Virus record (IMG/VR): IMGVR_UViG_2690316109_000015
Length of the DNA: 20,709 nucleotides
Reading direction: 5' to 3' (one strand)
Source of the DNA: a virus
Lineage: Duplodnaviria > Heunggongvirae > Uroviricota > Caudoviricetes
The notes beneath the pieces are model-generated. The model ran no database searches. It was not told where the DNA came from and saw only the letters and a list, made by a program, of their open reading frames with translations. Positions within the stretch are counted from its first letter, which is position 1. Each line of letters begins with the position of its first letter. Of this stretch, positions 17 to 20,445 are shown in pieces. The position numbers and the translations under genes are program-made.

Positions 17-490
17 TCAAAATCGGTGGAGCTGCATGACAAAGTCATCGGGCATTATCTGAACATAAAACACTATCAATAAGTTGGAGTCATTACCCGT
101 GCCTTGTTCCAGAATCCGCACTTTAATATTGGGATACAGCTCATTAAATTTACCGATTGCCAGCGGTAAAAAATAAAATACTGCGGTCGGAATACACGCT
201 AACGTCACCATACCACGATGATAAGCATTCATATCACGAATATTAAAAAGCGTTTCATCGAATTTCTTTATTAATTCCCGCGCCTCCGGGAGCAACCTTT
301 TTCCTGCTTTTGTTAACGTAACCTTGCGAGTTGTACGCTCAAATAGTTGAATATGTAAATCTTCCTCCATCTTTTTTATTCTTCGCGTTAATGCAGGTTG
401 CGTAATATTGAGTAATTTAGCGGCATTGTTAAATGAACTGGACTCTGCCAGTATGACAAATGCCTTCATACTTGATAATTCATGCTTCAT
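17..490 (-). CDS. ybhD: LysR-family transcriptional regulator, truncated: HTH domain plus start of effector-binding domain only (about 157 aa from ATG at 490)
   Basis: N-terminal HTH typical of LysR family (FNNAAKLLNITQPALTRRIKKMEEDL); frame closes with TGA at 17-19 and both other frames also hit stops within about 20 codons, so no full-length (about 300 aa) LysR protein is encoded. Track ORF starts at an upstream TTG (553); the ATG at 488-490 (MKHELSS) is preferred. Confidence 0.55.
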   Translation of the reverse strand: MKHELSSMKAFVILAESSSFNNAAKLLNITQPALTRRIKKMEEDLHIQLFERTTRKVTLTKAGKRLLPEARELIKKFDETLFNIRDMNAYHRGMVTLACIPTAVFYFLPLAIGKFNELYPNIKVRILEQGTGNDSNLLIVFYVQIMPDDFVMQLHRF

Positions 491-673
491 TATTACTCCG
501 GAAAATGGAAGCGACGATTTTGGGTGGCTGGTCGTTAAAAATTTTAACTGCATTTAGCCAACTTAAATTAATGAAAAAATGTTATTAATCGTTGAGCTAA
601 AGTCATTAGAGATGCTTTGTCCTTAATGTAACCATATCGCAATAAGTTATGTTTTTAAATTGAGGGCATTATT

Positions 674-1726: not shown

Positions 1727-1801
1727 AAAAATTCGTTGTCAGGATAAGGACAATCAATAAAGGACTTCTGTATGAGTCATACAGAAAGAACAGGATTTTA
1801 A

Positions 1802-3235: not shown

Positions 3236-3249
3236 ATATTCTCGTCATA

Positions 3250-3346
3250 CTTCAAGTTGCATGTGCTGCGTCTGCGTTCGCTCACCCCAGTCACTTACTT
3301 ATGTAAGCTCCTGGGGATTCACTCGCTTGTCGCCTTCCTGCAACTC
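3250..3346. repeat. ERIC/IRU-like enterobacterial repetitive intergenic element
   Basis: Contains cgctcaccccagtcacttacttatgtaagctcctggggattcac, the reverse complement of the ERIC core as I recall it (AAGTAAGTGACTGGGGTGAGCG), flanked by inverted gttgca/tgcaac ends. Confidence 0.6.
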
Positions 3347-3417
3347 AAATTATTTAGAGTATATCCATTTATTATCTTTCTGCGCACTTCACGGTGCGCA
3401 GATATCTGGAGCATTTG

Positions 3418-5679
3418 ATGATCAAGTTATCTGACAAAGGCGTGTTTCTCGCCAGTAATAACGAAATAATTGCTGAAGAACATTTCACCGGCGAAATTAA
3501 AAAAGAAGAAGCCAAAAAAGGCACTATTGCCTGGTCTATTCTCTCTTCGCATAATACGTCCGGAAATATGGATAAACTTAAAATTAAGTTTGATTCATTA
3601 GCCTCTCACGATATTACCTTTGTTGGTATTGTACAGACCGCTAAAGCGTCCGGTATGGAACGTTTCCCGCTGCCGTATGTGCTGACCAACTGCCATAACT
3701 CACTCTGCGCCGTCGGCGGCACCATTAACGGTGATGACCATGTTTTTGGTTTATCGGCAGCTCAGCGTTATGGCGGTATTTTTGTGCCTCCGCATATTGC
3801 GGTCATCCATCAATATATGCGTGAGATGATGGCAGGCGGCGGCAAAATGATCCTCGGGTCAGACAGCCACACCCGTTACGGTGCATTAGGGACAATGGCA
3901 GTCGGTGAGGGCGGTGGTGAGTTGGTAAAACAGCTGCTTAATGACACCTGGGATATCGACTATCCGGGAGTTGTTGCGGTGCATCTGACCGGAAAACCAG
4001 CGCCGTATGTGGGGCCGCAGGATGTGGCGCTGGCTATCATTGGCGCGGTGTTCAAAAACGGTTACGTCAAAAACAAAGTCATGGAGTTCGTTGGACCGGG
4101 CGTTAGCGCGCTCTCTACCGATTTCCGTAACAGCGTTGACGTGATGACCACGGAAACCACCTGTTTAAGCTCCGTCTGGCAAACTGATGAAGAAGTGCAT
4201 AACTGGCTGGCGCTGCACGGTCGCGGCCAGGATTACTGCCAGCTTAACCCTCAACCGATGGCGTACTACGATGGCTGCATCAGCGTTGATTTAAGCGCCA
4301 TCAAACCAATGATTGCGCTGCCGTTCCACCCGAGCAACGTGTATGAAATCGACACACTGAACCAGAACCTGACCGACATTCTGCGTGAGATTGAAATTGA
4401 GTCCGAACGCGTGGCGCACGGTAAAGCCAAACTCTCGCTGCTGGATAAAGTGGAAAATGGTCGCCTGAAAGTGCAGCAGGGGATTATCGCGGGCTGTTCT
4501 GGCGGTAACTACGAAAACGTCATCGCGGCGGCGAATGCACTGCGCGGTCAATCCTGTGGCAATGACACCTTCTCGCTGGCAGTTTACCCGTCATCACAGC
4601 CGGTGTTTATGGATCTCGCCAAAAAAGGTGTGGTAGCAGATTTGATTGGCGCAGGCGCAATCATCAGAACCGCGTTCTGCGGCCCATGCTTTGGCGCGGG
4701 CGATACGCCAATCAACAACGGTTTGAGTATTCGCCACACCACGCGTAACTTCCCGAACCGCGAAGGCTCTAAGCCAGCTAATGGGCAGATGTCAGCGGTG
4801 GCGTTGATGGACGCTCGTTCTATCGCTGCGACTGCGGCAAACGGTGGCTATTTAACCTCTGCCAGCGAACTTGATTGCTGGGACAACGTGCCGGAGTACG
4901 CCTTCGATGTAACGCCGTATAAAAACCGTGTTTATCAGGGCTTTGTGAAAGGGGCAACTCAGCAACCGCTGATTTACGGACCGAACATTAAAGACTGGCC
5001 GGAATTGGGTGCGCTGACTGACAATATCGTCCTGAAAGTGTGCTCGAAGATCCTCGACGAAGTGACCACCACCGACGAACTGATTCCTTCCGGTGAAACC
5101 TCTTCTTATCGTTCAAATCCGATTGGTCTGGCGGAGTTTACCCTGTCACGCCGCGATCCCGGTTATGTTGGCAGAAGTAAAGCGACTGCTGAGCTGGAAA
5201 ATCAGCGTCTGGCGGGGAATGTCAGCGAGCTGACAGAGGTGTTTGCGCGCATTAAGCAGATTGCTGGTCAGGAGCATATTGATCCGCTGCAAACTGAAAT
5301 TGGCAGCATGGTATATGCGGTGAAACCAGGCGATGGTTCTGCGCGTGAACAGGCGGCGAGCTGCCAGCGTGTGATTGGCGGTCTGGCGAATATTGCCGAA
5401 GAGTACGCGACTAAACGCTACCGTTCTAACGTCATCAACTGGGGGATGTTACCGCTGCAGATGGCGGAAGTGCCAACCTTTGAAGTGGGGGATTACATTT
5501 ACATCCCTGGCATTAAAGCGGCGCTGGATAATCCGGGTACGACGTTTAAAGGTTATGTGATCCATGAAGATGCGCCGGTAACGGAAATTACGCTCTATAT
5601 GGAAAGTCTGACTGCTGAAGAGCGCGAGATTATCAAGGCGGGTAGTTTGATTAACTTCAATAAAAACCGTCAGATGTAA
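3418..5679 (+). CDS. ybhJ: Aconitase-family protein (putative hydratase/dehydratase), 753 aa from ATG at 3418
   Basis: Aconitase-type motifs [14 protein letters not shown] and [10 protein letters not shown] (Cys ligands); the track ORF begins at GTG 3394, but ATG 3418 has GGAG at 6-nt spacing and gives 753 aa. Confidence 0.8.
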
Positions 5680-5695
5680 AAAGCGCCATGTGAAT

Positions 5696-5898
<203 letters not shown>

Positions 5899-5912
5899 AT
5901 AGTTAATTGCTC

Positions 5913-7196
5913 TTACTTCTTCGCCTCTGCAACCACTTTACTACCCACGCCGCGGTTATTGTATTCCCACATGCGGTTGTAGTTAGTGTCATTCAGATTG
6001 CGCTGTATTTCGTCGTTATCATCTACGCTGCCGGTATTACCCGCAAACGGACGATTAGAGATCACCGCATCGGCCCACGGTTTAGCCGTGTTAAAACCTT
6101 CGTTGATGGCGCTATCACGGATCACCACCTGACCGTTGGTATTGGCATCAACATCCAGCGAGCGGCCCAGTTGCGCCACGCCATCACCGGAAGCATTGAA
6201 ACGGCTGTTTACAGCGAGGAAACCGTAGTAAATGTTGGACAGCGTTGCCGGTGCAAACACATACGCTTCTTGCTGAGTACGTGAGTTCACCACGCGGAAT
6301 TCGGTGTTATCGAACACCACTGCGCCGCGACCAGAAACGATATCCACATCCCCTTCAATGTAGCTGTTGGTCACCAGCGTACGCGGCTGACGATTCGTTT
6401 CCAGACGGTTCTGCACACCGCTGTTGGTGACAAAGAAGGTGTTCTGACGACCGAGAATGTTCACGTTGTTAATCTGTACCTGGTCACCATCAGTACGCAG
6501 TGCCACCGCCGGATGGTTACCCGCATCTACGCTATCGCCCAGCGTGTTTTCGATGGTCAGGTTTTGCAGTTGCAGGCCATTGTTTTGTGACCAGAAGACC
6601 GCTGAACAGAGAACACCGATACTGTTGCTGCGTTTGCTCTGGCAGCTATCGTACATATACCACGCTGGTTTACCTGGCATATATTTGCCGCGCGGGTTGA
6701 CGTCGTGACGCCAGTCGGCAGGGCTCATGCCCCCATCAAGGGAAAGCCCAATCTTCACATCAATCGGTTTTTCACCTGTACCGTACAGAGTAATTCCACC
6801 CGGAGCGGCAGGAACATATACCGTTCCCTGATACTCACCTGGCATCACGGCAATATACTGGCGCTTGTTGGTACGCTTGATAATTGCCGCATCTACCGCC
6901 GCCTGAATCGTGGTATGCGTTACACCTTGAGTACCCGCCGGGCCGACAACAAAGTCAGGTTGCGCAGGCAGGGTAATCGGGGAAGGATTCCACGCTGCAG
7001 CACCTGGTGTCAGGGATGCAAAATAGTGTTGAGCATCGAAATTCTGCGCTTCTTTTGCCGACAGAATCGGGCGAGAAGAGGTACCAGGCGCGGTTTGATC
7101 AGAAGGACGTTGATCGGGTGGTGTTGAGCTACAGGCGGTCAGCGTCACGCCAAAAGCCAATGCCAGCGCCAGACGGGAAACTGAAAATGTGTTCAC
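5913..7196 (-). CDS. ybhC: Outer-membrane lipoprotein, pectinesterase-like / acyl-CoA thioesterase family (427 aa)
   Basis: GTG start with GGAG at 6 nt; signal peptide with lipobox LTAC|SS; gene immediately precedes the lambda attB position as in E. coli. Confidence 0.8.
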   Translation of the reverse strand: MNTFSVSRLALALAFGVTLTACSSTPPDQRPSDQTAPGTSSRPILSAKEAQNFDAQHYFASLTPGAAAWNPSPITLPAQPDFVVGPAGTQGVTHTTIQAAVDAAIIKRTNKRQYIAVMPGEYQGTVYVPAAPGGITLYGTGEKPIDVKIGLSLDGGMSPADWRHDVNPRGKYMPGKPAWYMYDSCQSKRSNSIGVLCSAVFWSQNNGLQLQNLTIENTLGDSVDAGNHPAVALRTDGDQVQINNVNILGRQNTFFVTNSGVQNRLETNRQPRTLVTNSYIEGDVDIVSGRGAVVFDNTEFRVVNSRTQQEAYVFAPATLSNIYYGFLAVNSRFNASGDGVAQLGRSLDVDANTNGQVVIRDSAINEGFNTAKPWADAVISNRPFAGNTGSVDDNDEIQRNLNDTNYNRMWEYNNRGVGSKVVAEAKK

Positions 7197-7229
7197 AGGT
7201 TGCTCCGGGCTATGAAATAGAAAAATGAA

Positions 7230-7330
7230 TCCGTTGAAGCCTGCTTTTTTATACTAAGTTGGCATTATAAAAAAGCATTGCTTATCAATTTGTTGCAACG
7301 AACAGGTCACTATCAGTCAAAATAAAATCA
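7230..7330. other. attL junction: host B arm, 15-bp lambda core (7243-7257) and P' arm with Int arm-type sites
   Basis: Exact core GCTTTTTTATACTAA at 7243-7257, followed by gttggcattataaaaaagcattgcttatcaatttgttgcaacgaacaggtcactatcagtcaaaataaaatcatt (lambda P' arm as I recall it); int starts right after. Confidence 0.9.
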
Positions 7331-8401
7331 TTATTTGATTTCAATTTTGTCCCACTCCCTGCCTCTGTCATCACGATACTGTGATGCCATGGTGTCCGAC
7401 TTATGCCCGAGAAGATGTTGAGCAAATTTATCGCTTATCTGCTTCTCATAGAGTCTTGCAGACAAACTGCGCAACTCGTGAAAGGTTGGCGGATCCCCTT
7501 CGAAGGAGAGACCTGATGCTTTTCGTGCGCGCATAAAATACCTTGATACTGTGCCGGATGAAAGCGGTTCACGACGAGTAGATGCAATTATGGTTTCTCC
7601 GCCAAGAATCTTTTTGCATTTATCAAGTGTTTCCTTCATTGATATCCCGAGAGCATCAACATGCAATGTTGTTGGGATGGCAATTTTTACGCCTGTTTTG
7701 CTTTGCTCGACATAAAGATATCCATCTACGATATCAGACCACTTCATTTCGCATAAATCACCAACTCGCTGCCCGGTAACAACAGCCAGTTCCATTGCAA
7801 GTCTGAGCCAACATGGTGATGATTCTGCTGCTTGATAAATTTTCAGGTATTCGTCAGCCGTAAGTCTTGATCTCCTTACCTCTGATTTTGCAGCGCGAGT
7901 GGCTGCGACCGGGTTTGTTGTTATATGGCCTTCAGCTATAGCCTCTCGGAATGCATCGCTCAGTGTTGATCTGATTAACTTGGCTGATGCCGCCTTGCCC
8001 TCGTCTATGTATCCATTGAGCATTGCCGCAATTTCTTTTGTGGTGATGTCTTCAAGTGGAGCATCAGGCAGACCCCTCCTTATTGCTTTAATTTTGCTCA
8101 TGTAATTTATGAGTGTCTTCTGCTTGATTCCTCTGCTGGCCAGGATTTTTTCGTAGCGATCAAGCCATGAATGTAACGTAACGGAATTATCACTGTTGAT
8201 TCTCGCTGTCAGAGGCTTGTGTTTGTGTCCTGAAAATAACTCAATGTTGGCCTGTATGGCTTCAGTGATTGCGATTCGCCTGTCTCTGCCTAATCCAAAC
8301 TCTTTACCCGTCCTTGGGTCCCTGTAGCAGTAATATCCATTGTTTCTTATATAAAGGTTAGGGGGTAAATCCCGGCGCTCATGACTTCGCCTTCTTCCCA
8401 T
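7331..8401 (-). CDS. int: Tyrosine integrase, lambda Int (356 aa)
   Basis: 356 aa; sequence recognised as essentially lambda Int (MGRRRSHERRDLPPNLYIRNNGYYCYRDPRTGKEF... HELRSLSARLYEKQ... LLGHKSD...); adjacent to attL. Confidence 0.95.
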   Translation of the reverse strand: MGRRRSHERRDLPPNLYIRNNGYYCYRDPRTGKEFGLGRDRRIAITEAIQANIELFSGHKHKPLTARINSDNSVTLHSWLDRYEKILASRGIKQKTLINYMSKIKAIRRGLPDAPLEDITTKEIAAMLNGYIDEGKAASAKLIRSTLSDAFREAIAEGHITTNPVAATRAAKSEVRRSRLTADEYLKIYQAAESSPCWLRLAMELAVVTGQRVGDLCEMKWSDIVDGYLYVEQSKTGVKIAIPTTLHVDALGISMKETLDKCKKILGGETIIASTRREPLSSGTVSRYFMRARKASGLSFEGDPPTFHELRSLSARLYEKQISDKFAQHLLGHKSDTMASQYRDDRGREWDKIEIK

Positions 8402-8804: not shown

Positions 8805-9118
8805 TTATCATCTCCATAAAACAAAACCCGCCGTAGCGAGTTCAGATAAAAGAAATCCTCGTCAGTGCGAGGATGCTGTTCATTGCTGCTATACACTTTT
8901 TTGCTCTCAACGTAAGCGGTAGCCCATTCTGTTGGGTTGGTGCAGTTGCTTTTAGGAAATGCTATTTACCCCTTAAATTTCGGCTGAAAGAGCTAAAATC
9001 CATGCAAAAAATTTACGCAATTTTGTGTATTATTGTGCAGTAAGTAATGAGCTATTTTCTGCGCAAAAAATGGATGGTAAATTTGTCCGGGTCAGGAAAA
9101 ATTTTATGGGCGCTAAAC

Positions 9119-9649
9119 ATGAAAAAAGATTCGTATCCTTATTTGATTTGCATGACAGTTTCAGGGCTGATCTTTATTTTCCTTTTCTTCTGGTGGCGGG
9201 CAGATATCTACAGGGTCACGTTTCTTAATCAGAGTATATCCCACTATTACATTCTGTTTAGCATGGGAATAGCTTTTCTGTTATCTCTGTTTTGGGTTAA
9301 GAAGGGGATAGTAAAACAAAGAGGCTGGAAGAGTCTGTCAGCATACCTTAAGGTTTATGCAGGGATGTGCATATTTGCTGGATTTTTTCTGATTATACCC
9401 CTTACGACACTAACTTATTTTTTGCCTGGAGAGACATCGTCTTATGTTGCACCGTATCGGTATACTTCCGGTAGTTCAAAAAGTTGTTCTGGAGCTGAGG
9501 TGGATGACCCCGATCTACATGAGAATATTCGCATTTGCTATCCGTATGGCAATTATGAGTACGATAATATTATCTATGTTGAAAAGAAAATTAATATATT
9601 AGGTGCGGTAGTGACATATGCACAGACCGCGCGTGATGATACTGAATGA
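9119..9649 (+). CDS. Small integral membrane protein (about 176 aa from MKK start; 200 aa if started at ATG 9047), moron-like cargo in b region
   Basis: Three hydrophobic helices (YPYLICMTVSGLIFIFLFFWW; ISHYYILFSMGIAFLLSLFWV; LKVYAGMCIFAGFFLIIPLTTLTYFL) plus a Cys-containing soluble C-terminal tail; AT-rich; opposite orientation to the flanking leftward operon; no strong SD for any candidate start. Confidence 0.5.
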   Translation: MKKDSYPYLICMTVSGLIFIFLFFWWRADIYRVTFLNQSISHYYILFSMGIAFLLSLFWVKKGIVKQRGWKSLSAYLKVYAGMCIFAGFFLIIPLTTLTYFLPGETSSYVAPYRYTSGSSKSCSGAEVDDPDLHENIRICYPYGNYEYDNIIYVEKKINILGAVVTYAQTARDDTE

Positions 9650-10491: not shown

Positions 10492-10663
10492 CTGCTTCTG
10501 CTTTCGCCACCATCATTTCCAGCTTTTGTGAAAGGGATGCGGCTAACGTATGAAATTCTTCGTCTGTTTCTACTGGTATTGGCACAAACCTGACTCCAAT
10601 TTGAGCGAGGCTATGTGCCATCTCGATACTCGTTCTTAACTCAACGGGAGATGCTTTGTGCAT
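10472..10663 (-). CDS. Hypothetical protein, lambda orf63-like (63 aa)
   Basis: ATG at 10661-10663; sits in the conserved position upstream of exo in the leftward operon. Confidence 0.55.
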   Translation of the reverse strand: MHKASPVELRTSIEMAHSLAQIGVRFVPIPVETDEEFHTLAASLSQKLEMMVAKAEADERDQV

Positions 10664-10818
10664 ACAGCTCCCCGTTTATTATTTATCTCCTCAGCCAGCC
10701 GCTGTGCTTTCAGGGGATTTCGGATAACAGAAAGGCCGGGAAATACCCAGCCTCGCTTCGTAACGGAGTAGACGAAAGTGATCGTGCCTACGCGGATATT
10801 ATCGTGAGGATGTTTCAT
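10636..10818 (-). CDS. Hypothetical protein, lambda orf60a-like (60 aa from second ATG)
   Basis: ATG at 10816-10818 has GGGGAG at 8-nt spacing; the first ATG (10824) has SD too close; overlaps the exo stop. Confidence 0.5.
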
Positions 10819-11495
10819 CGCCATTGCTCCCCAAATACAAAACCAATTTCAGCCAGTGCCTCGTCCATTTTTTCGATGAACTCCGGCACCATCTCGTCAA
10901 AACTCGCTATATACTTTTCATTCCGCTCAATCACGACATAATGCAGGCCTTCACGCTTCATGCGCGGGTCATAGTTGGCAAAGTACCAGGCATCTTTTCG
11001 CGTCACCCACATGCTGTACTGCACCTGGGCCATGTAAGCCGATTTTATTGCCTCGAAACCACCGAGCCGGAATTTCATGAAATCCCGGGAGGTAAACGGG
11101 CATTTCAGTTCAAGGCCGTTGCCGTCACTGCATAAACCATCGGGAGAGCAGGCGGTGCGCATATTTTCGTCGCGATAGATGATCGGGGATTCAGTAATAT
11201 TCACGCCGGAAGTGAATTCAAACAGGGTTCTGGCGTCGTTCTCGTACTGTTTTCCCCAGGCCAGCGCCTTAGCATTAACTTCCGGAGCCACACCGGTGCA
11301 AACCTCAGCCAGCAGGGTGTGGAAGTAGGACATTTTCATGTCAGGCCACTTCTTTCCTGAGCGGGGCTTTGCTATCACGTTGTGAACTTCTGAAGCGGTG
11401 ATGACGCCGAGCCGTAATTTGTGCCATGCATCATCCCCCTGTTCGACAGCTCTCACGTCGATCCCGGTACGCTGCAGGATAATGTCCGGTGTCAT
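10815..11495 (-). CDS. exo: Lambda Red exonuclease Exo (226 aa)
   Basis: 226 aa, [62 protein letters not shown]...; recognised as lambda Exo; start overlaps the bet stop. Confidence 0.95.
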
Positions 11496-12277
11496 GCTGC
11501 CACCTTCTGCTCAGTGGCTTTCTGTTTCAGGAATCCAAGAGCTTTCACTGCTTCGGCCTGTGTCAGTTCTGACGATGCGCGAATGTCGCGGCGAAATATC
11601 TGGGAACAGAGCGGCAATAAGTCGTCATCCCATGTTTTATCCAGGGCGATCAGCAGAGTGTTAATCTCCTGCATGGTTTCATCGTTAACCGGAGTGATGT
11701 CGCGTTCCGGCTGACGTTCTGCAGTGTATGCGGTATTTTCGACAATGCGCTCGGCTTCATCCTTGTCATAGATACCAGCAAATCCGAAGGCGAGACGGGC
11801 ACACTGAATCATGGCTTTATGCCGTAACATCCGTTTGGGATGCGACTGCCACGGCCCCGTGATTTCTCTGCCTTCGCGAGTTTTGAATGGTTCGCGGCGG
11901 CATTCATCCATCCATTCGGTAACGCAGATCGGATGATTACGGTCCTTGCGGTAAATCCGGCATGTACAGGATTCATTGTCCTGCTCAAAGTCCATGCCAT
12001 CAAACTGCTGGTTTTCATTGATGATGCGGGACCAGCCATCAACGCCCACCACCGGAACGATGCCGTTCTGCTTATCAGGGAAGGCGTAAATTTCTTTCGT
12101 CCACGGATTAAGGCCGTACTGGTTGGCGACGATCAACAATGCGATGAACTGCGCATCGCTGGCATCACCTTTAAATGCCGTCTGGCGAAGAGTGGTGATC
12201 AGTTCCTGTGGGTCGACAGAATCCATGCCGACACGTTCAGCCAGCTTCCCAGCCAGCGTTGCGAGTGCTGTACTCAT
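11492..12277 (-). CDS. bet: Lambda Red single-strand annealing protein Beta (261 aa)
   Basis: 261 aa, [66 protein letters not shown]...; recognised as lambda Bet. Confidence 0.95.
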
Positions 12278-12282
12278 CCGTT

Positions 12283-12579
12283 TTATACCTCTGAATCAAT
12301 ATCAACCTGGTGGTGAGCAATGGTTTCAACCATGTACCGGATGTGTTCTGCCATGCGCTCCTGAAACTCAACATCGTCATCAAACGCACGGGTAATGGCT
12401 TTTTTGCTGGCCCCGTGGCGTTGCAAATGATCGATGCATAGCGATTCAAACAGGTGCTGGGGCAGACCTTTTTCCATGTCGTCTGCCAGTTCTGCCTCTT
12501 TCTCTTCACGGGCGATCTGCTGGTAGTGACGCGCCCAGCTCTGAGCCTCAAGACGATCCTGAATGTAATAAGCGTTCAT
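12283..12579 (-). CDS. gam: Lambda Gam, RecBCD inhibitor, short (GamS-type, 98 aa) form
   Basis: [60 protein letters not shown]...; AGGAG 6 nt upstream of ATG at 12579. Confidence 0.9.
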
Positions 12580-12655
12580 GGCTGAACTCCTGAAAATGGC
12601 TGTGAAAATATCGCCCGCGAAATGCCAGGCTGATTAGGAAAACAGGAAAGGGGGG

Positions 12656-12862
12656 TTAGTGATTCAGGCCGTTACCGCGTCCGTCGAGAAAAACTTCTAC
12701 GAGCAAATCACGGGTATAAGTGCGCTCGATGCCGCGATGCAGATAAAGCCGTCCGCGTAAATTAGCTGATGCAGTCCAGGTACCATCTTTGTGTTTGACC
12801 AGCATTCCTGGCATGACCGCGCCGCGATTAACGGTCTGTGTTCCGTAATGTTGATGAACCAT
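12656..12862 (-). CDS. Small protein (68 aa) in the kil position upstream of gam
   Basis: ATG at 12860-12862 with AGGAG at 5-nt spacing; MVHQHYGTQTVNRGAVMPGMLVKHKDGTWTASANLRGRLYLHRGIERTYTRDLLVEVFLDGRGNGLNH; assignment is by position only. Confidence 0.4.
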   Translation of the reverse strand: MVHQHYGTQTVNRGAVMPGMLVKHKDGTWTASANLRGRLYLHRGIERTYTRDLLVEVFLDGRGNGLNH

Positions 12863-13129
12863 AAAAACTCCTGCCCGTAAGCTGGGCTGCTGAACATATA
12901 GAGACTTCTGCGCGTATTCAGGCGGTGGATGGCCGCCGGTTGTCATAACTAAGCCGCCTCGTTGAAGCGACTGAGGTATGAAATGTTGAGTTAATTTCAG
13001 CTGGTCACACCGACGTTCACGCGTCCGTTTCACCCCTCGCACTCCCCGAAGCCTGCTGAAATTCAAACTGCGGATCTAAGCGGTCATCGCAACGGTGAAT
13101 CAGGTGGTTGCCGTATCGTTGTGTTGTTG

Positions 13130-13190
13130 CGATATGGTGATAATAGCTATTGCTATTGGTGATATCAATACTTATTGCTATTGACTGATG
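13130..13190 (-). promoter_or_regulatory. Candidate leftward early promoter (pL-like) with two operator dyads (oL)
   Basis: Minus-strand -35 TTGATA (plus-strand 13163-13168), 17-bp spacer, -10 TATTAT (13140-13145). Two 16-bp dyads AATAGC-N4-GCTATT at 13142-13157 and (one mismatch) 13167-13182; the same motif recurs at oR. Confidence 0.5.
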
Positions 13191-13308
13191 TGTTTTGATA
13201 TTAAATGTTTGATAGCAAAAAGAATTAATTTTGTGACTTGCATCGCATAGCGATAACTGAAGCAGGGATGTGGTGGTTTTTTGAGCGGTGTGTGATGAGG
13301 GGAGGGGA

Positions 13309-13336
13309 CAAAAGAAAACCCGGCACGGTGGCCGGG
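13309..13336 (-). terminator. Rho-independent terminator ending the repressor/cargo operon (tImm-like)
   Basis: Minus strand CCCGGC-caccgt-GCCGGG followed by TTTTCTTTTG, starting 26 nt after the TAG stop (13363-13365) of the 268-aa gene. Confidence 0.65.
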
Positions 13337-13362
13337 TTATTAATTAAATTAGTCAGTTTTTT

Positions 13363-14169
13363 CTACTGTAACATAGAGGCAGCATTCAGCATCTTTTCGT
13401 AATATGAACGCATGTCTTCTTTGCTATATGCGTTGATAAGATTATCAGCGTGTTTTTCCAGTAGATTTAGCTGCTGTTTTGCTGACTTTTCTTGTGCTGT
13501 CGTTTCAGCGGCAAAAATTACAAATGAATCAATATTTGAATTGTATAATTCGTAGGCTTTAGTAATTGTTAAAACACTTATCGCAGCTTCACCCATTTGT
13601 TTTTTTATATTTTCAGAACGAAAATCTAATGTTTCTGTAAGATGGTATTTGCCATTTTTTAACAAAAAATCTGCAACTAACCCTTCTTCATTACTAATTG
13701 GATAATTAGCTACGATTTTATGTTGGGAAAGATCTTCAAAATACTTACTGAAAATTCCATGTTGTATAAAGGTGGATTTTAATTCAGAAAAAACCTTTTT
13801 TTTCAACTGTTTATGTGGCTGTTTTTGTGGGTTTACTAACCGATTCATTAGATCAGTAACTTTAGCTTCGTAATCTTCGTTGGCTTGAAGAGTGAACATG
13901 CCAAATGACGATAACGATAATGCTCCCTTAAAAAGACAAGGAAGAAGTTCAGCATTGTTGATTTTTTGTGACAAATCAAAAAGCGAGGTCGAAAGATCCT
14001 CTAAGTAATCTAAGGTAAGATCTTTGTCAATCGCTTTAAGTTTTGAAACTGAATTGAGCATACGTACGTCTATGTCAGAGTCATGGTAAACGATCAAACC
14101 AACGTTAATCGTTTCACCTTTCTCTAAGTTCGGTGTAACTCTGATTAAGCTGTATTTGAAAGTTTTCAA
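13363..14169 (-). CDS. Hypothetical protein (268 aa), second gene of the rex-position cargo operon; no recognisable catalytic motif
   Basis: TTG start whose first two bases overlap the upstream TGA stop (TCTTGAAAA), GGAG 8 nt upstream; AT-rich; N-terminus MKTFKYSLIRVTPNLEKGETINVGLIVYHDSD; C-terminal third predicted helical. Confidence 0.7.
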   Translation of the reverse strand: MKTFKYSLIRVTPNLEKGETINVGLIVYHDSDIDVRMLNSVSKLKAIDKDLTLDYLEDLSTSLFDLSQKINNAELLPCLFKGALSLSSFGMFTLQANEDYEAKVTDLMNRLVNPQKQPHKQLKKKVFSELKSTFIQHGIFSKYFEDLSQHKIVANYPISNEEGLVADFLLKNGKYHLTETLDFRSENIKKQMGEAAISVLTITKAYELYNSNIDSFVIFAAETTAQEKSAKQQLNLLEKHADNLINAYSKEDMRSYYEKMLNAASMLQ

Positions 14170-15014
14170 GATGTTATCTCCAGTCTTATGGCATTTAGCC
14201 TATCGATTCGCTCCTCGCTGTCCCACCACTTCAAAAAATACTCCTTATGCATTGGTGGCATCCATGCTTCAGGCATAGAGTTAAGTATATCAGATATAGC
14301 CTCAACTCCAATTTTTTCAATTTTGTCAAGGACAGATAATGCGCACTTTCTCAGATCATCAGTGTCGCCAATGAATTGTTTAGCAATCGTCCAGTTTGTT
14401 GTTGTACTGGAGTCTGTTGGTAGTATATGAGGGGTATTTCGTGGCCAGCCTATAACAAAAGAGCTTAGACTAAAATCGAATGTTTTAACTATAACATTGC
14501 CTCGGGTGTTTTCCATGTATAAGTAGTTGTTGAGGTGTCTGTCAATGTTATATACAAACTGATCAAATGCATAAATTGCCCAGAGTTGCTTCTTTAAGGA
14601 TTCAGAAGCATTTGAGAGCAAATTTATCCATTGAGGACTATTGAGACCAGATTTCCAGGCTGAAAACTCTATGCGAGAGCCAAAAACATACTCCCCATTA
14701 GCAATACACTTGAGAATTTTGCACACAGGTGTAGCGATGCCGCATTTTTCAGCTAAATTTGTGCAAAACCATTCCGCTGCCGGTACTTGAGTTGGGTTTT
14801 GTACAGGAAAAGGTGGGGTGGAGCGCATGCTTTTAACTGCATATTCCATTTCATCAGTGGCAATAGCGAAACCAGAAAGGTGTGCTGTGCCTAAGCTTGA
14901 AGGTGTATATTCATGAAATTCTAATTCAAACAAACTTCCTTGCTCTGGTTTCACTTCATCAGTGTTTGACTCTTGTTCTTTCGTCATCAACTTTTTTCCC
15001 CAAATCGAAGACAT
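14166..15014 (-). CDS. Kinase-like protein (282 aa) with HipA/PI3K-type catalytic-loop signature; first gene of the rex-position cargo operon
   Basis: ATG at 15014 with AGAGG at 5-nt spacing, 46 nt downstream of the cI-like stop; motif NIDRHLNN (D-R-H-x-x-N) followed about 20 residues later by KTFDFS (DFG-like); AT-rich. Confidence 0.7.
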   Translation of the reverse strand: MSSIWGKKLMTKEQESNTDEVKPEQGSLFELEFHEYTPSSLGTAHLSGFAIATDEMEYAVKSMRSTPPFPVQNPTQVPAAEWFCTNLAEKCGIATPVCKILKCIANGEYVFGSRIEFSAWKSGLNSPQWINLLSNASESLKKQLWAIYAFDQFVYNIDRHLNNYLYMENTRGNVIVKTFDFSLSSFVIGWPRNTPHILPTDSSTTTNWTIAKQFIGDTDDLRKCALSVLDKIEKIGVEAISDILNSMPEAWMPPMHKEYFLKWWDSEERIDRLNAIRLEITS

Positions 15015-15060
15015 GCGGACCTCTTAAATTTGAACAACATCATAATGATTAGCTAATCCG

Positions 15061-15753
15061 CTACCCATGCTTCCTATACGTCTGCGGCATGCTCCCAATA
15101 ACCTTACCGAAGATGAACACCCGGTTCATCTCGTCTTTCTCGATCGGGTCCCACGGTGAGTAGCTCTTGTTATCAGAGATAACCAGCAGCTTATCCTTCA
15201 TCATTTGCAGACGCTTTACATGGGCTGTGTCGTCGTACAGAAACGCATAGATACCATCACCGTCGAAAGATTTAACCGTGATATCAACGAACAGCAGATC
15301 ACCTGGTTCGATCGTTCCTGACATGCTGTCACCACGCACGTTAATGATGCGGATATTTTCCGCCTTCCTGCCATCGAACATGTGACGAGCATCGTCAAAC
15401 GAGTACTCAACCGAGCGTAGAACTTCTACAAACTCACGGTTGATTACACCCGGCCCGGCACTGACTTCTATATCAAGAACGTCAATTTTGAAGTATTTGG
15501 AATGGCTGACAGCAGGCTTCCCTGATTGTTGACCGTCATTTCTCATCGGGCCTATGCCTGATGAGAGCCATTCTGTTCGAACACCCAATGCATTAGCTAT
15601 TTCAACAATTTTTGTTGAGCCGCGCGCGTTGCCGCTTGTCAGTCTCCAGATTGTGGGTTGAGCTACGCCAGACGCCTTTGCAAGAGCGCCTTGAGACATT
15701 CCAGATTGTTCCATCGCTAGGTTTAAGCGATCAGCAAGAGTTTCTTTTTTCAT
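15061..15753 (-). CDS. CI-like prophage repressor: N-terminal XRE-type HTH, C-terminal S24 (LexA-like) autopeptidase; about 230 aa from ATG 15753
   Basis: HTH MSQGALAKASGVAQPTIWRL; S24 catalytic Ser in VRGDSMSGTIEPGDLLFVD and Lys in AHVKRL; candidate Ala-Gly cleavage site (SAGPG). The track ORF starts at TTG 15789; ATG 15753 has no SD and abuts the -10 element, suggesting a leaderless transcript as for lambda cI from pRM. Not lambda cI. Confidence 0.85.
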   Translation of the reverse strand: MKKETLADRLNLAMEQSGMSQGALAKASGVAQPTIWRLTSGNARGSTKIVEIANALGVRTEWLSSGIGPMRNDGQQSGKPAVSHSKYFKIDVLDIEVSAGPGVINREFVEVLRSVEYSFDDARHMFDGRKAENIRIINVRGDSMSGTIEPGDLLFVDITVKSFDGDGIYAFLYDDTAHVKRLQMMKDKLLVISDNKSYSPWDPIEKDEMNRVFIFGKVIGSMPQTYRKHG

Positions 15754-15863
15754 AAGTTTTAATTTATACGCTTGCGTATTGATGGTCAAAACACGTTTTG
15801 CTATTGCTTGGATTAATACGCATTGCTATTATTCATTCATTGCAATACCAATAGGAATTGATA
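15754..15863. promoter_or_regulatory. Immunity switch region: divergent pRM-like and pR-like promoters with operator dyads (oR)
   Basis: Minus strand: -35 TTGACC (plus 15784-15789), then TATAAA/TAAATT ending about 7 nt before the cI-like ATG. Plus strand: -35 TTGCTT (15804-15809), 17-bp spacer, -10 TATTAT (15827-15832). Dyads: ATACGCTTGCGTAT (15766-15779) and AATACGCATTGCTATT (15815-15830). Confidence 0.55.
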
Positions 15864-16091
15864 ATGACAAATCAAACCATTCAACTCGCAATCAGTATTA
15901 CAGGTAGTCAAAAACGACTGGCAGATCTATGCGGTGTAGCCCAACCCACTGTTTGGCGTTGGCTACACGGTGGCGGAATTGATGCCCGCTATGTAATGAA
16001 AATTGTCTCAGCCACTGGTGGAAAGATTAAACCAGCAGATATTCGTCCCGACCTCGCACCATTGTTTAACGCGAGTAATTCTGCCGCCTAA
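15864..16091 (+). CDS. Cro-like small HTH regulator (75 aa from ATG 15864)
   Basis: Position immediately rightward of the repressor; HTH-like segment QKRLADLCGVAQPTVWRWLHGG; AGGA at 7-nt spacing. The track ORF begins at TTG 15858. Confidence 0.7.
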   Translation: MTNQTIQLAISITGSQKRLADLCGVAQPTVWRWLHGGGIDARYVMKIVSATGGKIKPADIRPDLAPLFNASNSAA

Positions 16092-16115
16092 ACTGCGGCG
16101 TTAACTGATAAGGCA

Positions 16116-16661
16116 ATGACTATGCAACCACTTACATACCAACAGACTAGCGGATTTATCCCGACTGCGGTGATAAATCGTTCTCAAATAAAACAGGTGC
16201 CAGGCCACGAAAAAATCCGTGATGCCATCCGCGCCTGGTCGGCTGTAGATAATCAGGATGTCGTTGCCGCACTCATTGTGAATGAGTATCGAGCACAGGG
16301 CGGCGGCACTATCGATTTTTCTGATGATGTCAGTCGTGCACGCCAGAAGCTGTTCCGCTTTCTCGATAACAAATTCGATTCTGAAAAATACCGAAATAAC
16401 GTGCGTGAACTGACTCCAGCAATTCTGGCAGTACTACCGCTGAAATATCGCGGCCACCTGGTTGAGCAGGATAGCTTCATGGCTCGGCTGGCTGAAATGG
16501 AAAAGGAACTCAGTGAGGCAAAACAGGCTGTCATTCTCAACGCACCACGCCACCAGAAACTGAAGGAGATGAGTGAAGGCATTGTGTCGATGTTTCGTGT
16601 GGACCCGGATTTGGCTGGTCCACTGATGGCGATGGTCACCACCATGCTGGGGGCAATATGA
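16116..16661 (+). CDS. CII-position regulator, YdaT-like (181 aa)
   Basis: Occupies the cII position between cro-like and O; segments EYRAQGGG and LTPAILAVLP resemble what I recall of Rac-prophage YdaT. Confidence 0.5.
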   Translation: MTMQPLTYQQTSGFIPTAVINRSQIKQVPGHEKIRDAIRAWSAVDNQDVVAALIVNEYRAQGGGTIDFSDDVSRARQKLFRFLDNKFDSEKYRNNVRELTPAILAVLPLKYRGHLVEQDSFMARLAEMEKELSEAKQAVILNAPRHQKLKEMSEGIVSMFRVDPDLAGPLMAMVTTMLGAI

Positions 16662-16747
16662 CAGGTTCAGAAATGGCGAAAGCCGGTCTGCGCGAACAGA
16701 ACCGACTTTCAGGTGCAAATCGTAACACACTCATTGCGGGAGGAATT

Positions 16748-17677
16748 ATGGCAAACACTGCTGAGATATTCAATTTTCCAGTGCCGGATGTGGCACAAAA
16801 GGAGCCGCGCGTGGCAGATCTCGATGATGGTTATACGCGCATTGCAAATGAGTTGCTGGAAGCTGTGATGCTGGCCGGATTAACACAGCACCAGCTTCTG
16901 GTCTTCCTGGCTGTCATGCGCAAAACATATGGCTTTAATAAAAAACTGGATTGGGTGAGCAACGAGCAACTTTCCGAATTGACCGGGATATTGCCGCACA
17001 AGTGTTCTGCTGCAAAAAGCGTTCTGGTAAAGCGTGGGATTCTTATTCAGAGCGGGCGGAATATCGGCATTAATAATGTGGTCAGTGAATGGTCAACATT
17101 ACCCGAATCAGGTAAGAAAAATAAAGTTTACCTGAAAGAGGTAAATTTACCTGAATCAGGTAAGAAAAGTTTACCCAAATCAGGTAAAGGCGTTTACCCG
17201 AATCAGGTAAACACAAAAGACAAACTAACAAAAGACAATATAAAACCTTTTTCGTCCGAGAATTCTGGCGAATCCTCTGACCAACCAGAAAACGATCTTC
17301 CTGTGGAGAAACCAGATGCTGCAATTCAGAGCGGCAGCAGGTGGGGGACAGCAGAAGACCTGACCGCCGCAGAGTGGATGTTTGACATGGTGAAGACCAT
17401 CGCGCCATCAGCCAGAAAACCGAATTTTGCAGGGTGGGCTAACGATATCCGCCTGATGCGTGAACGTGACGGACGTAACCACCGCGACATGTGCATGCTG
17501 TTCCGCTGGGCATGCCAGGACAACTTTTGGTCTGGTAACGTGCTGAGCCCGGCCAAACTTCGCGACAAGTGGACCCAACTCGAAATCAACCGTAACAAAC
17601 AACAGGCTGGCGTGACAGCCGGAAAACCAAAACTCGACCTGACAAACACAGACTGGATTTACGGGGTGGATCTATGA
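16748..17677 (+). CDS. O: Replication initiator O, hybrid: non-lambda N-terminal (origin-binding) half, lambda-like C-terminal half (309 aa from ATG 16748)
   Basis: Start MANTAEIFNF...VADLDDGY parallels lambda O MTNTAKILNF...VADLDDGY; GGAGG upstream; C-terminal part (SSENSGESSDQPEND ... LDLTNTDWIYGVDL) recognised as lambda O; iterons lie inside the gene. An in-frame upstream ATG at 16658 overlaps the previous stop (ATGA). Confidence 0.85.
   Translation: MANTAEIFNFPVPDVAQKEPRVADLDDGYTRIANELLEAVMLAGLTQHQLLVFLAVMRKTYGFNKKLDWVSNEQLSELTGILPHKCSAAKSVLVKRGILIQSGRNIGINNVVSEWSTLPESGKKNKVYLKEVNLPESGKKSLPKSGKGVYPNQVNTKDKLTKDNIKPFSSENSGESSDQPENDLPVEKPDAAIQSGSRWGTAEDLTAAEWMFDMVKTIAPSARKPNFAGWANDIRLMRERDGRNHRDMCMLFRWACQDNFWSGNVLSPAKLRDKWTQLEINRNKQQAGVTAGKPKLDLTNTDWIYGVDL
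17098..17210. repeat. Replication origin iterons: five copies of an 18-bp dyad TTTACC(C/T)(G/A)AATCAGGTAA, followed by an AT-rich stretch
   Basis: Copies at about 17099-17115, 17127-17144 (degenerate), 17146-17163, 17170-17187 and 17193-17210, each with TTACC/GGTAA dyad symmetry; AT-rich 17211-17255. Same architecture as lambda ori inside O but a different iteron sequence. Confidence 0.75.
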
Positions 17678-18375
17678 AAAACATCGCCGCACAGATGATT
17701 AACTTTGACCGTGAGCAGATGCGTCGGATCGCCAACAACATGCCGGAACAGTACGACGAAAAGCCGCAGGTACAGCAGGTAGCGCAGATCATCAACGGTG
17801 TATTCAGCCAGTTGCTGGCAACTTTCCCTGCGAGCCTGGCTAACCGTGACCAGAACGAACTGAACGAAATCCGCCGCCAGTGGGTTCTGGCTTTCCGGGA
17901 AAACGGGATCACCACAATGGAACAGGTTAACGCAGGAATGCGCGTAGCCCGTCGGCAGAATCGACCATTTCTGCCATCACCTGGGCAGTTTGTTGCATGG
18001 TGCCGGGAAGAAGCATCCGTTATCGCCGGACTGCCAAACGTCAGCGAGCTGGTTGATATGGTTTACGAGTATTGCCGGAAGCGCGGGCTGTATCCGGATG
18101 CAGAGTCTTATCCGTGGAAATCAAACGCGCACTACTGGCTGGTTACCAACCTGTATCAGAACATGCGGGCCAATGCGTTGACTGACGCGGAATTACGGCG
18201 CAAGGCTGCCGATGAACTGTCCTGTATGACCGCACGAATTAACCGTGGTGAGGCTATACCTGAACCAGTAAAACAACTTCCTGTCATGGGCGGTAGACCA
18301 CTTAACCGGGCTCAGGCTCTGGCGAAGATCGCAGAAATCAAAGCTAAGTTCGGACTGAAAGGAGCCAGTGTATGA
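17674..18375 (+). CDS. P: Replication protein P (DnaB helicase loader), lambda P (233 aa)
   Basis: 233 aa MKNIAAQMINFDREQMRRIANNMPEQYDEKPQVQQVAQIINGVFSQLLATFPASLANRDQNE...; recognised as lambda P; ATGA overlap with the O stop. Confidence 0.95.
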   Translation: MKNIAAQMINFDREQMRRIANNMPEQYDEKPQVQQVAQIINGVFSQLLATFPASLANRDQNELNEIRRQWVLAFRENGITTMEQVNAGMRVARRQNRPFLPSPGQFVAWCREEASVIAGLPNVSELVDMVYEYCRKRGLYPDAESYPWKSNAHYWLVTNLYQNMRANALTDAELRRKAADELSCMTARINRGEAIPEPVKQLPVMGGRPLNRAQALAKIAEIKAKFGLKGASV

Positions 18376-18665
18376 CAGGCAAAGAGGCAATTCTTCACTA
18401 CCTGAAAACGCACCGGACTTTCTGCGCGCCGGATGTAGCTGCGGCAACAGGCGTGACTGTAACCAGCATCAATCAGGCAGCAGCCAAAATGGCACGGGCA
18501 GGAATCCTGGTCGTTGATGGCAAGGTCTGGCGAACGGTGTATTACCGGTTCGCTACCAGGGAGGAGCGGGAAGGAAAAGTGAGCACGAACCTGATTTTCA
18601 AGGAGTGTCGCCAGAGTGCCGTGATGAAACGGGTATTGATGTTTTGGGGGAGGGTAGGGGTATAA
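18372..18665 (+). CDS. ren: Ren-like protein (97 aa)
   Basis: MTGKEAILHYLKTHRTFCAPDVAAATGVTVTSINQAAAKMARAGILVVDGKVWRTVYYRFATREEREGK...; close to lambda Ren as I recall it; ATGA overlap with the P stop. Confidence 0.85.
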   Translation: MTGKEAILHYLKTHRTFCAPDVAAATGVTVTSINQAAAKMARAGILVVDGKVWRTVYYRFATREEREGKVSTNLIFKECRQSAVMKRVLMFWGRVGV

Positions 18666-18953: not shown

Positions 18954-19706
18954 ATGGATCCTAAATTACTGTATGCCACGTTTAAACGAAATGACGCACC
19001 AGCTTGGCGCTGCCCGAACTGTATGAATGAAACACTGGAGATTGTCGCTGATAGTTTTGTAGAAACTGATTCAAGCGCAACAACTCAGTTTAGAGATGAA
19101 GTATGGTTTGATGAGGAAATGTCGGGAGGAGTATTCAGTTGCGTGCTGCGCTGTACCCGCCAAGCCTGCCAGGAGAAGGTTGCTTTGTCTGGGCAGGTTG
19201 TTGCTGTAGAATGCTTCAATGACGAAATGACGGAGCGTTGGTATGTTTCTGGTTTCCGTCCTAAGTATTTCTATCCACCACTTCCTCTATTCCTGTTTCC
19301 TGAAAAGTGCCCTGAAGATATAGCTGATCTCTTGGCGGAAGTATCAGCTCTGATCCCCTCGCACCCAGCTTCAGCGGTGAACACCATGAGAACCATACTG
19401 GAGATGATGCTTGATAGTCTTGATGTACCAAGAGAGAAAACAGTTAAAGGCAAGATAATACGTCTTTCTACGCATGAAAGAATCACATATTATTCAGATA
19501 AACTGGGACCAAATAAAGATGCATTCATGGCGTTAAAGTGGTTGGGGAATCACGGCAGTCATGGAGGGATTAAAGTCACAAGGTCCTCTATTAATGATGC
19601 CTGCATTCTCATTGGTCATTTGATTGACTTCTTATTCTTAGAAAGCCCGGATGTAACTATTCATATTGAACGGATAAACAACGTGTATGCACCCAAAAAG
19701 GAGTAA
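18954..19706 (+). CDS. Hypothetical protein (250 aa): N-terminal Cys4 zinc-ribbon-like region plus C-terminal HEPN/DUF4145-like segment with non-canonical motif
   Basis: GGAG at 8-nt spacing; Cys pairs WRCPNC ... CVLRCTRQAC; C-terminal LKWLGNHGSHGG aligns with the RNNLFHG motif of the downstream 160-aa protein but lacks the Arg; lower GC than flanks by eye. Confidence 0.65.
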   Translation: MDPKLLYATFKRNDAPAWRCPNCMNETLEIVADSFVETDSSATTQFRDEVWFDEEMSGGVFSCVLRCTRQACQEKVALSGQVVAVECFNDEMTERWYVSGFRPKYFYPPLPLFLFPEKCPEDIADLLAEVSALIPSHPASAVNTMRTILEMMLDSLDVPREKTVKGKIIRLSTHERITYYSDKLGPNKDAFMALKWLGNHGSHGGIKVTRSSINDACILIGHLIDFLFLESPDVTIHIERINNVYAPKKE

Positions 19707-19717: not shown

Positions 19718-19966
19718 ATGTCGAAGCAGAATATTGCCGCTAAAACACAAGAAGAGCGCGAGAAGGTTAACGTTGACCTTGCTGTCTCCTGAGTTACCTA
19801 CAAAGAGCGCCTTAATATACCGGTTATTGCCGAAGCGGTGATGCGTGAGCAGCCTGAGCATTTGCGGGACTATTTTTTGGAGCGGCCACGACATTACCGC
19901 GAGCAGAGCATCGCGCTGCCCAAGGCATCCACTCCTCGACATCTTAAGCAGGAAGGTGAAAAATGA
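19718..19966 (+). other. Small reading frame (82 codons) interrupted by one in-frame TGA (19790-19792), ending in an ATGA overlap with the next gene
   Basis: MSKQNIAAKTQEEREKVNVDLAVS[61 protein letters not shown]; its TGA stop (19964-19966) overlaps the ATG (19963-19965) of the 160-aa gene; no good SD at 19718; internal ATG at 19841. Confidence 0.3.
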
Positions 19967-20445
19967 TAAGTGCAGAAGGACTGCAGCGGTTACTTAATTT
20001 ATCGGAGCCTCCATCTGATGAACTGATTGATGTTTATCTTCAATTCTGCATGATTTTTCCTAGGGTCGAGCAAAGTTTTTTTGGTGGCTTTGCTAAGGGG
20101 GAAGACAGTTTAAATTATGCGCGAACGTTACTTGACGCCGGGATAAAGGTGCCCAACGAACTTTTTCACGATTTTAAGCAGAGATACATTTTGAACGGGG
20201 ATGCGCAGGAAAGACTTGACGCCCTCTGTGTCGGTCGAGAGAGAGATAGGCGGGGAATAGTTAATGGACTTCAAAATGACGCAGCAACAGATCTAAACAC
20301 CATGTCTACAGTATTAAAGATAGTTATAAGGATAAGAAATAACCTTTTCCACGGAAATAAAGAAGCTTATCTTTTTGTTGATTCTCAAGAGCAAGCGCAA
20401 CTATTGAGGTGGTGCGTGAGATTTCTCCAAGGATTATTAAATTAA
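19963..20445 (+). CDS. HEPN-like protein (160 aa) with canonical R-x4-H motif (putative RNase-type toxin/abortive-infection effector)
   Basis: Motif [11 protein letters not shown] (R-N-N-L-F-H = Rx4H) near the C-terminus in a predicted helical context; non-lambda cargo replacing nin-region genes. Confidence 0.6.

Follow-up and report, generated by a model that had tools for sequence, protein, structure and literature searches.

A short HipA-like kinase and its DUF3037 partner, an allelic alternative of the DS-6 defense system in a lambdoid prophage, probably form a toxin-antitoxin-like anti-phage pair

A 20,709-nucleotide (nt) stretch of viral DNA from the class Caudoviricetes, IMG/VR record IMGVR_UViG_2690316109_000015 (hereafter the window, meaning this whole stretch at its full length), carries on its minus strand a gene for a HipA-like kinase followed by a gene for a DUF3037 protein. 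We propose, with a probability of about 0.7, that the kinase is an active, minimal, single-domain Ser/Thr-type member of the HipA superfamily, which would act as the toxic effector of a two-gene toxin-antitoxin (TA)-like anti-phage system together with its DUF3037 partner. The evidence laid out below comprises the exchange of this gene pair for the validated defense system DS-6 in otherwise near-identical prophages, the conservation of a kinase catalytic set, a predicted fold with the element order of protein kinases, and the nearly constant pairing of the two genes. Coordinates of all features are given in Table 1.

The kinase/DUF3037 pair occupies the position of DS-6 in near-identical prophages

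The whole region is a lambdoid prophage. The left end of the window is chromosomal, with genes for a LysR regulator, PrpF, a symporter, an aconitase-like protein and a pectinesterase, and is followed by a gene for a lambda-type integrase; from these ybhC-like chromosomal neighbors and the integrase (window 1-8401), the prophage would lie at or near attλ. When the window was compared by blastn with prophages carrying DS-6, positions 18500 to 15065 and 13344 to 10500 were 96-98% identical to three contigs (L071, L073 and L077), and a fourth contig (L084) was likewise 96-98% identical but with a slightly shorter right-hand block (13344 to 10661). The intervening segment is replaced in those contigs by 1,727 bp with DS-6A and DS-6B, and the exchange runs from the cI stop codon to just short of a terminator hairpin, which sits just outside the swapped segment. 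Because 1,720 bp of the window are replaced by a DS-6A/B segment in prophages that are otherwise 96-98% identical, the window pair is an allelic alternative of DS-6. The G+C content of this cassette is 0.30-0.42, compared to approximately 0.52 in its flanks.

The window-type pair is carried by 47 IMG/VR contigs and the DS-6 type by 45; 44 of the latter have DS-6B adjacent to DS-6A and 43 have a lambdoid context, with several sharing near-identical cI (529-535 bits) along with cro, ydaT, O, P, kil, gam, bet and exo. In 5,426 complete Escherichia coli genomes, the DS-6 allele was found in 284 and the window allele in 24, the window kinase open reading frame (ORF) being intact in the latter at at least 99% DNA identity. 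The NCBI Prokaryotic Genome Annotation Pipeline (PGAP) names the DS-6 allele "HipA family kinase" and leaves the window allele unnamed. An identical cassette is present in an E. coli O157:H16 genome (L001), in a prophage that has a different integrase and is inserted in ynfG. Since the window-type cassette is also found in this prophage, the cassette moves between backbones, which are mosaic around a common immunity and cassette region.

The catalytic motifs of the kinase are conserved

A preliminary description of the window, made from the letters and translations, had singled out the kinase ORF for a D-R-H-x-x-N signature followed by a DFG-like motif. The ORF is real and lies on the minus strand, a point absent from that description, and the two peptides quoted there, FVYNIDRHLNNYLYME and VIVKTFDFSLSS, are present in its translation as D158-R-H-L-N-N163 and D180-F-S182, at a spacing of 22 residues. 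The ORF encodes 282 amino acids (aa) from an ATG at position 15014, with a Shine-Dalgarno sequence (AAGAGG) 5' of it. The start codon differs between calls (window 14988-15014, minus strand): for the identical copy in the O157:H16 genome, PGAP starts at M10 to give a 273-aa "hypothetical protein" (WP_224142735.1). Homologues of 280-282 aa align to the window kinase from residue 1, and residues 1-26 are predicted to be disordered under either call, with the N-lobe of the model beginning at approximately residue 31.

The chance occurrence of the motifs was estimated from 20,000 composition-preserving shuffles of the kinase sequence; D.H..N alone appeared in 1.3% of the shuffled sequences, and D.H..N followed 12-30 residues on by D-[FILMVY]-[GSA] in 0.065%. 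When 50 non-redundant homologues with identities down to 26% were aligned, residues K61, E81, D151, N156, D158, R159, N163 and D180 were present in all 50, while H160 and S182 were each conserved in 45, S182 being replaced by Gly in the other five. Because D158, R159, N163 and D180 never vary and H160 and S182 seldom do, the alignment indicates that the kinase motifs are under selection. The preliminary description recognized no motif in the N-terminal 150 residues; this is superseded by the invariant K61 (within YAVK) and E81, which indicate that a kinase N-lobe with its Lys/Glu pair lies in the N-terminal half.

In five homologues (L009 and L064-L067), H160 is changed to Asn together with S182 to Gly, giving D-R-N...D-F-G rather than D-R-H...D-F-S, a coupled change of catalytic loop and DFG-like motif.

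The predicted fold places the kinase in the HipA superfamily

Profile searches reached the family narrowly. The kinase matched Pfam HipA_2 (PF20613) with 28.7 bits against a cut-off of 27 (E = 1e-6), a marginal and partial match in which residues 53-179 fall on profile positions 21-148 of 240. HipA_N and Couple_hipA gave no match at E ≤ 1 in the same Pfam scan; NCBIfam gave no meaningful match for either the kinase or its partner, with no HipA family among the matches; and by sequence the kinase does not belong to the phosphatidylinositol 3- and 4-kinases (PI3K and PI4K), judged by the PI3_PI4_kinase domain and the accessory helical and C2 domains of that family. A single-sequence phmmer search of the PDB returned no chain at E ≤ 10, and the best chains of a PDB profile search, HipT and a HipA_C protein, were non-significant (E ~0.5) and aligned at the catalytic loop. 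As sequence alone could not place the kinase, a comparison of folds was needed.

The structural model of the kinase is confident. It contains strands at residues 31-38, 48-52 and 57-61, the last ending in K61, a helix at 74-90 that carries E81, two further strands and then helices; next, a loop spanning N156 to N163 is followed by strands 164-168 and 174-178 and then by D180-F-S. The fold is all soluble, with no membrane-association feature in the model. Canonical kinases present in order a strand with Lys, a helix with Glu, the catalytic loop and the DFG Asp, and measured by this yardstick, the element order of the model is protein-kinase-like. K61, E81, D158, N163 and D180 are in register with K42, E55, D139, the Asn of NVNIL and D164 of DS-6A, and an hhalign comparison of the window kinase family with DS-6A gave a probability of 96.7% (E = 3.8e-10). 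An hhalign comparison with E. coli HipA placed D-R-H-L-N-N on D309-G-H-A-K-N314 and F-D-F-S-L-S on F-Y-D332-I-I-S with a one-residue offset, at an overall probability of 5%; the equivalents of D309, N314 and D332 are thus present, and we treat this weak register, with which the fold matches agree, as corroboration only.

Altogether, the kinase qualifies narrowly as a HipA_2 member and has the catalytic set of the HipA superfamily. The kinase fold proposed in the preliminary description, that of an atypical, short kinase of the HipA/PI3K type, is upheld by the element order of the model and the invariant catalytic set. By alignment, the DRH and DFS aspartates fall on D309 and, with the one-residue offset, D332 of HipA and on D139 and D164 of DS-6A.

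The kinase is paired with a DUF3037 gene

The stop codon of the kinase gene overlaps the start codon of the partner gene by 4 nt (TTGA) on the same strand. The partner matched Pfam DUF3037 with 38.5 bits (cut-off, 22.6) and, over residues 1-190, the PADLOC profile PDC-M66B with 31.7 bits (E = 2.6e-8), compared to 57.4 bits for DS-6B itself; the kinase also matched the PADLOC profile PDC-M03A (26.5 bits). To define how constant this pairing is, 68 loci were surveyed, 21 from a set with one genome per species and 47 from IMG/VR. At 67 of them the kinase gene is directly followed by a co-oriented, full-length homologue of the partner gene, mostly with a 4-nt overlap, and the lone unpaired locus (L023) is a spurious weak match. 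The pairing spans Gamma-, Beta- and Alphaproteobacteria, and it is kept at kinase identities of 26-33% in Gallionellaceae, Marinobacterium, Acetobacteraceae, Rhodoferax, Variovorax and others, as well as on a Pararhizobium plasmid. The lambdoid arrangement recurs in many viral contigs with the pair, often beside an unrelated repressor. The kinase gene is therefore not a stand-alone gene but is paired with a DUF3037 gene.

The kinase family is of modest size, with 624 clusters (50% identity) at E ≤ 1e-3 and 149 at E ≤ 1e-30 among 1.84 billion representatives, and the members listed are mostly ~240-280 aa long. Strong PHROG matches were to phrog_3162 and phrog_5137, presumably owing to prophage-derived members. 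One 326-aa database protein (P0022) joins 77% of the kinase, at 89% identity, to a DUF3037 part that covers 26% of the partner; its origin is probably a frameshift or a gene-calling artifact that merged the overlapping genes, not fusion in nature.

The pair lies between the repressor gene and a terminator in the immunity region

In phage lambda, this part of the genome has the layout cI-rexA-rexB-t_imm-OL/PL. In the window, the kinase gene is co-oriented with the cI-like repressor gene and separated from it by 46 nt, and a terminator scan found no terminator-like site on the minus strand in this gap. From its place in the immunity region, the pair is readable only from the repressor promoters or from a promoter of its own. 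Because the pair lies between the stop codon of cI and the terminator hairpin, upstream of OL/PL, it is probably co-transcribed with cI and expressed in lysogens, and we propose the hairpin as the end of a cI-kinase-DUF3037 transcript. Beyond the hairpin, a PL-like promoter (minus strand, 13168 to 13140; TTGATA-17-TATTAT, 10/12 consensus match) is directed away from the pair toward kil-gam-bet-exo. A 49-nt repeat at 13134-13182 recurs at 15782-15830 with 73% identity.

The HTH (helix-turn-helix) gene upstream of the kinase gene was also considered as a HipB-like antitoxin gene. This candidate was rejected, as its product includes an S24 peptidase domain, operator repeats and a divergent cro-like gene lie next to it, and the gene is unchanged across differing cassettes.

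Within the kinase gene there is a promoter-like site on the minus strand (14515 to 14488; TGGAAA-16-TATAGT with a TG-extended -10), which could in principle give partner-only transcripts, as lambda P_LIT does for rexB. We make no claim for it because the promoter-like matches of the region are not above the shuffle expectation.

Table 1. Features of the kinase/DUF3037 cassette and the adjoining immunity region
Feature	Coordinates	Strand	Basis or remark
Exchangeable cassette, 1,720-bp low-GC segment	13345..15064	minus	Only part of 10500-18500 differing from DS-6 prophages (blastn)
Kinase coding sequence, 282 aa, HipA-like (HipA_2/PI4K-II-type) atypical kinase; proposed toxin/effector	14166..15014	minus	
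K61 codon (YAVK), candidate ATP-binding Lys, third N-lobe strand	14832..14834	minus	50/50; aligns with DS-6A K42; model strand 57-61
E81 codon, candidate alpha-C Glu	14772..14774	minus	50/50; aligns with DS-6A E55; model helix 74-90
Catalytic loop D158-R-H-L-N-N163	14526..14543	minus	Aligns with HipA D309-G-H-A-K-N314 and DS-6A D139
D180-F-S182, DFG-equivalent putative metal-binding motif right after strand 174-178	14469..14477	minus	Aligns with HipA F-Y-D332-I-I-S (one-residue offset) and DS-6A D164
Partner coding sequence, 268 aa, N-terminal DUF3037 and C-terminal restriction-endonuclease-like domain; proposed antitoxin/sensor	13363..14169	minus	Start overlaps kinase stop
cI-like repressor (HTH_3 and Peptidase_S24, phrog_4), 242-aa ORF; proposed first operon gene	15061..15753	minus	Pfam, PHROG, PGAP coordinates
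Strong intrinsic-terminator-like hairpin AACCCGGC-caccgt-GCCGGGTT, then TTCTTTTG	13317..13338	minus	25 nt past partner stop
Putative OL cluster, CAATAGCAAT-type repeats, overlapping PL-like promoter	13134..13196	.	
Putative OR cluster between cI and divergent cro-like gene	15782..15863	.	Repeat D1, inverted repeats I9 and I18

Proposed mechanism and alternative explanations

We propose the following model. In a lysogen, the pair would be expressed with the repressor, and the DUF3037 protein would hold the kinase inactive. Infection by another phage would release or activate the kinase, which would then phosphorylate an essential target of the host, or perhaps a target of the phage, with K61 and E81 positioning ATP, D158 serving as the catalytic base, and N163 and D180 binding Mg; the phosphorylation would lead to growth arrest and hence to aborted infection. 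A role as growth-arrest effector had been put forward in the preliminary description, and the homology to DS-6, the allelic swap with it and the correspondence of D158 to DS-6A D139 support it, making the kinase a probable toxic effector.

Several observations weigh against this proposal. That such pairs defend, need the kinase to do so and are toxic once the partner is missing is carried over from papers on distant homologues, so for this allele these properties stand by analogy. DS-6A and the window kinase share approximately 24% identity, the kinase matched the PADLOC profile PDC-M66A weakly (15.7 bits, E = 0.0016, compared to 53.2 bits for DS-6A itself), and HipA_C scored below its Pfam cut-off (25.0 versus 30.5 bits). 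A direct alignment of DS-6B with the window partner covered only the first 28 N-terminal columns, with a probability of 45%. The gathering of K61, E81, D158, N163 and D180 round a nucleotide cleft is inferred from alignments and topology, not from three-dimensional distances. The promoter and terminator scans report consensus matches only, with five promoter-like sites found compared to 7.8 expected by shuffle. Because megablast and tblastn detected no homologue of the kinase among 50,697 deposited phage genomes, all knowledge of the pair stems from prophage-derived sequence. The predicted nuclease-like fold of the partner, moreover, leaves room for a more active role of that protein.

This last point leads to a different division of labor, in which the restriction-endonuclease-like domain of the partner would cut DNA as the real effector, and the kinase, as sensor or regulator, would activate it by phosphorylation. 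The reported toxicity of a DUF3037 gene deletion argues against this arrangement, which we consider unlikely. A little less unlikely is a plain addiction module, in which the two genes would stabilize the prophage by post-segregational killing, or by punishing loss of the immunity region, rather than exclude phages. Overlapping genes, a toxic kinase and a neutralizing partner in a homologue, and the location on a mobile element all follow TA-like logic, and the pair also occurs outside prophages: the Pararhizobium plasmid has it, as do chromosomal contigs from Beta- and Alphaproteobacteria whose flanks, where examined, contain no recognizable lambdoid genes. However, two homologous systems give protection from phages when they are cloned free of any prophage, and the swapping of alternative alleles in the classical rex/exclusion slot is a pattern typical of defense cargo; addiction and defense are, besides, not mutually exclusive.

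A kinase with a lipid, sugar, nucleotide or other small-molecule substrate, comparable to PI4K-II or a Fam20B-type xylosylkinase and acting, for example, through an envelope modification that blocks superinfection, appears improbable. The only families detected by sequence are HipA_2 and HipA_C, whose characterized members are protein Ser/Thr kinases; the homology to DS-6A is significant; the best PDB profile matches, neither of them significant, were HipT and a HipA_C protein; and the all-soluble model offers nothing for membrane association. As for a pseudokinase remnant, decayed or non-catalytic and without a present function, as the PGAP product name "hypothetical protein" and the marginal scores against curated kinase profiles might suggest, we reject this explanation, whose likelihood is negligible: it is effectively refuted by the full catalytic set kept in all 50 homologues down to 26% identity, and the intact ORF in the 24 E. 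coli genomes, the 624 representative clusters and the confident model also speak against it.

Within the proposed TA-like defense system, a more specific conjecture can be offered, tentatively and as one we would not expect to hold in full. The window-type and DS-6-type cassettes may be functionally distinct alleles at one locus under diversifying selection, differing in trigger and/or substrate; the conserved restriction-endonuclease-like C-terminal domain of the partner in the window clade may be an active DNA sensor or nuclease, so that recognition of nucleic acid would be coupled to release of a kinase with a HipA/PI3K-type DRHxxN loop, and this kinase may have a target other than the aminoacyl-tRNA synthetases of HipA and HipT.

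Other accessory genes in the prophage

Just after ren in the nin region, a gene at 18954-19706 (plus strand) encodes a 250-aa DUF4145 protein (Pfam, 44.2 bits; phrog_1305), and downstream of it lies a gene for a 160-aa protein at 19963-20445 (plus strand; phrog_27260), in which R-N-N-L-F-H can be read as an Rx4H HEPN-like motif. PADLOC gave no match for either protein. The O157:H16 prophage (L001) has a different gene directly after ren, encoding a DUF4041 protein on the opposite strand. The region after ren thus looks like a second variable cargo site, and the two window genes there may form an undescribed defense pair. Between the integrase gene and the exo gene, a 200-aa ORF at 9047-9649 (plus strand) encodes an apparently hydrophobic, multi-pass protein whose C-terminal 88 residues match phrog_1416, with no match in Pfam; it may be another accessory gene expressed in lysogens.

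Comparison with known systems

The combination of a HipA-like kinase and a DUF3037 protein is already recognized as the PADLOC candidate PDC-M66, which is DS-6 of DefensePredictor (PMC13092281); the DefensePredictor authors state that DS-6 was independently found and renamed HipAD (Brenes & Laub 2025) (PMC13092281). Mutating the predicted catalytic residue of DS-6 abolishes defense, the strain table giving D139A, and AlphaFold3 predicts binding between the kinase and the DUF3037 protein as well as DNA binding by the latter (PMC13092281). In DS-6 as in the window pair, the HipA_2-type kinase gene comes first and overlaps by 4 nt a co-oriented DUF3037 gene, and both pairs occupy the identical slot in the same lambdoid backbone; both window proteins match the corresponding profiles, PDC-M66A and PDC-M66B, and it is the essential D139 of DS-6A that aligns with D158. 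The window pair has the defining architecture of PDC-M66/DS-6/HipAD, with weak profile scores. The two kinases differ in that DS-6A is a core member of HipA_2 (257.9 bits, full length) and has D-R-T with a 6-residue insertion before the Asn, and D-H-N for D-F-S, whereas the catalytic loop of the window kinase is a contiguous D-R-H-x-x-N. The RefSeq accessions of the window proteins were not found among the DefensePredictor table rows listed.

A second relative is embedded in the Retron-Sda1 operon, where deletion of the HipA-like gene abolishes defense and deletion of the DUF3037 gene is toxic (PMC12548924). It has the same two-domain architecture as the window pair, and its logic of a required kinase that is toxic without DUF3037 is that proposed here; it lies, however, inside a type III retron operon, and the C-terminus of its DUF3037 protein resembles a retron DNA-binding protein.

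Compared to the classical HipA systems, the window kinase lacks three canonical features, namely a HipA_C score above the cut-off, the N-terminal HipA domain and HipB. E. coli HipA has 440 aa including that N-terminal domain, and its P-loop S-x-A-G-A-Q-E-K with Ser150 is absent from the window kinase, which has G42-T-A-H-L at the homologous position. The antitoxin proposed here is the downstream DUF3037 protein, whereas HipBA and HipBST use an upstream HipB HTH protein or HipS. HipA targets GltX, and HipT targets TrpS. HipA is not mentioned in Kaur et al. 2020. CtkA (JHP0940) of Helicobacter pylori, type II PI4K and CotH are 11-16% identical to the window kinase with no significant sequence match; they are, respectively, a secreted pro-inflammatory kinase, a lipid kinase and a spore-coat kinase, and none has a DUF3037 partner.

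By position, the closest parallel is lambda RexA/RexB, which likewise lies 3' of cI within the immunity region and ends at a terminator before OL/PL. Like the window pair, rexA and rexB are low-GC cargo, presumably with a shared logic of expression, and a proposed role in exclusion by the lysogen is compatible with either pair, although the proteins are unrelated. Rex is thought to act via a membrane ion channel.

Altogether, the system is one already described, with validation in E. coli prophages, and the window pair is a divergent allele that is less common and lacks annotation. No new kind of system is revealed; among the by-products, the clean exchange of alleles at a rex-like slot and the nuclease-like fold of the partner are the most useful. 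The analysis offers a functional label for an E. coli prophage gene called "hypothetical protein" in RefSeq and for several hundred sequence clusters. One rex-position slot carries two highly diverged versions of a kinase/DUF3037 pair in otherwise near-identical phages, and this natural allele pair provides a handle on the trigger and target specificity of HipA-type defense kinases and on the role of the nuclease-like DUF3037 protein.

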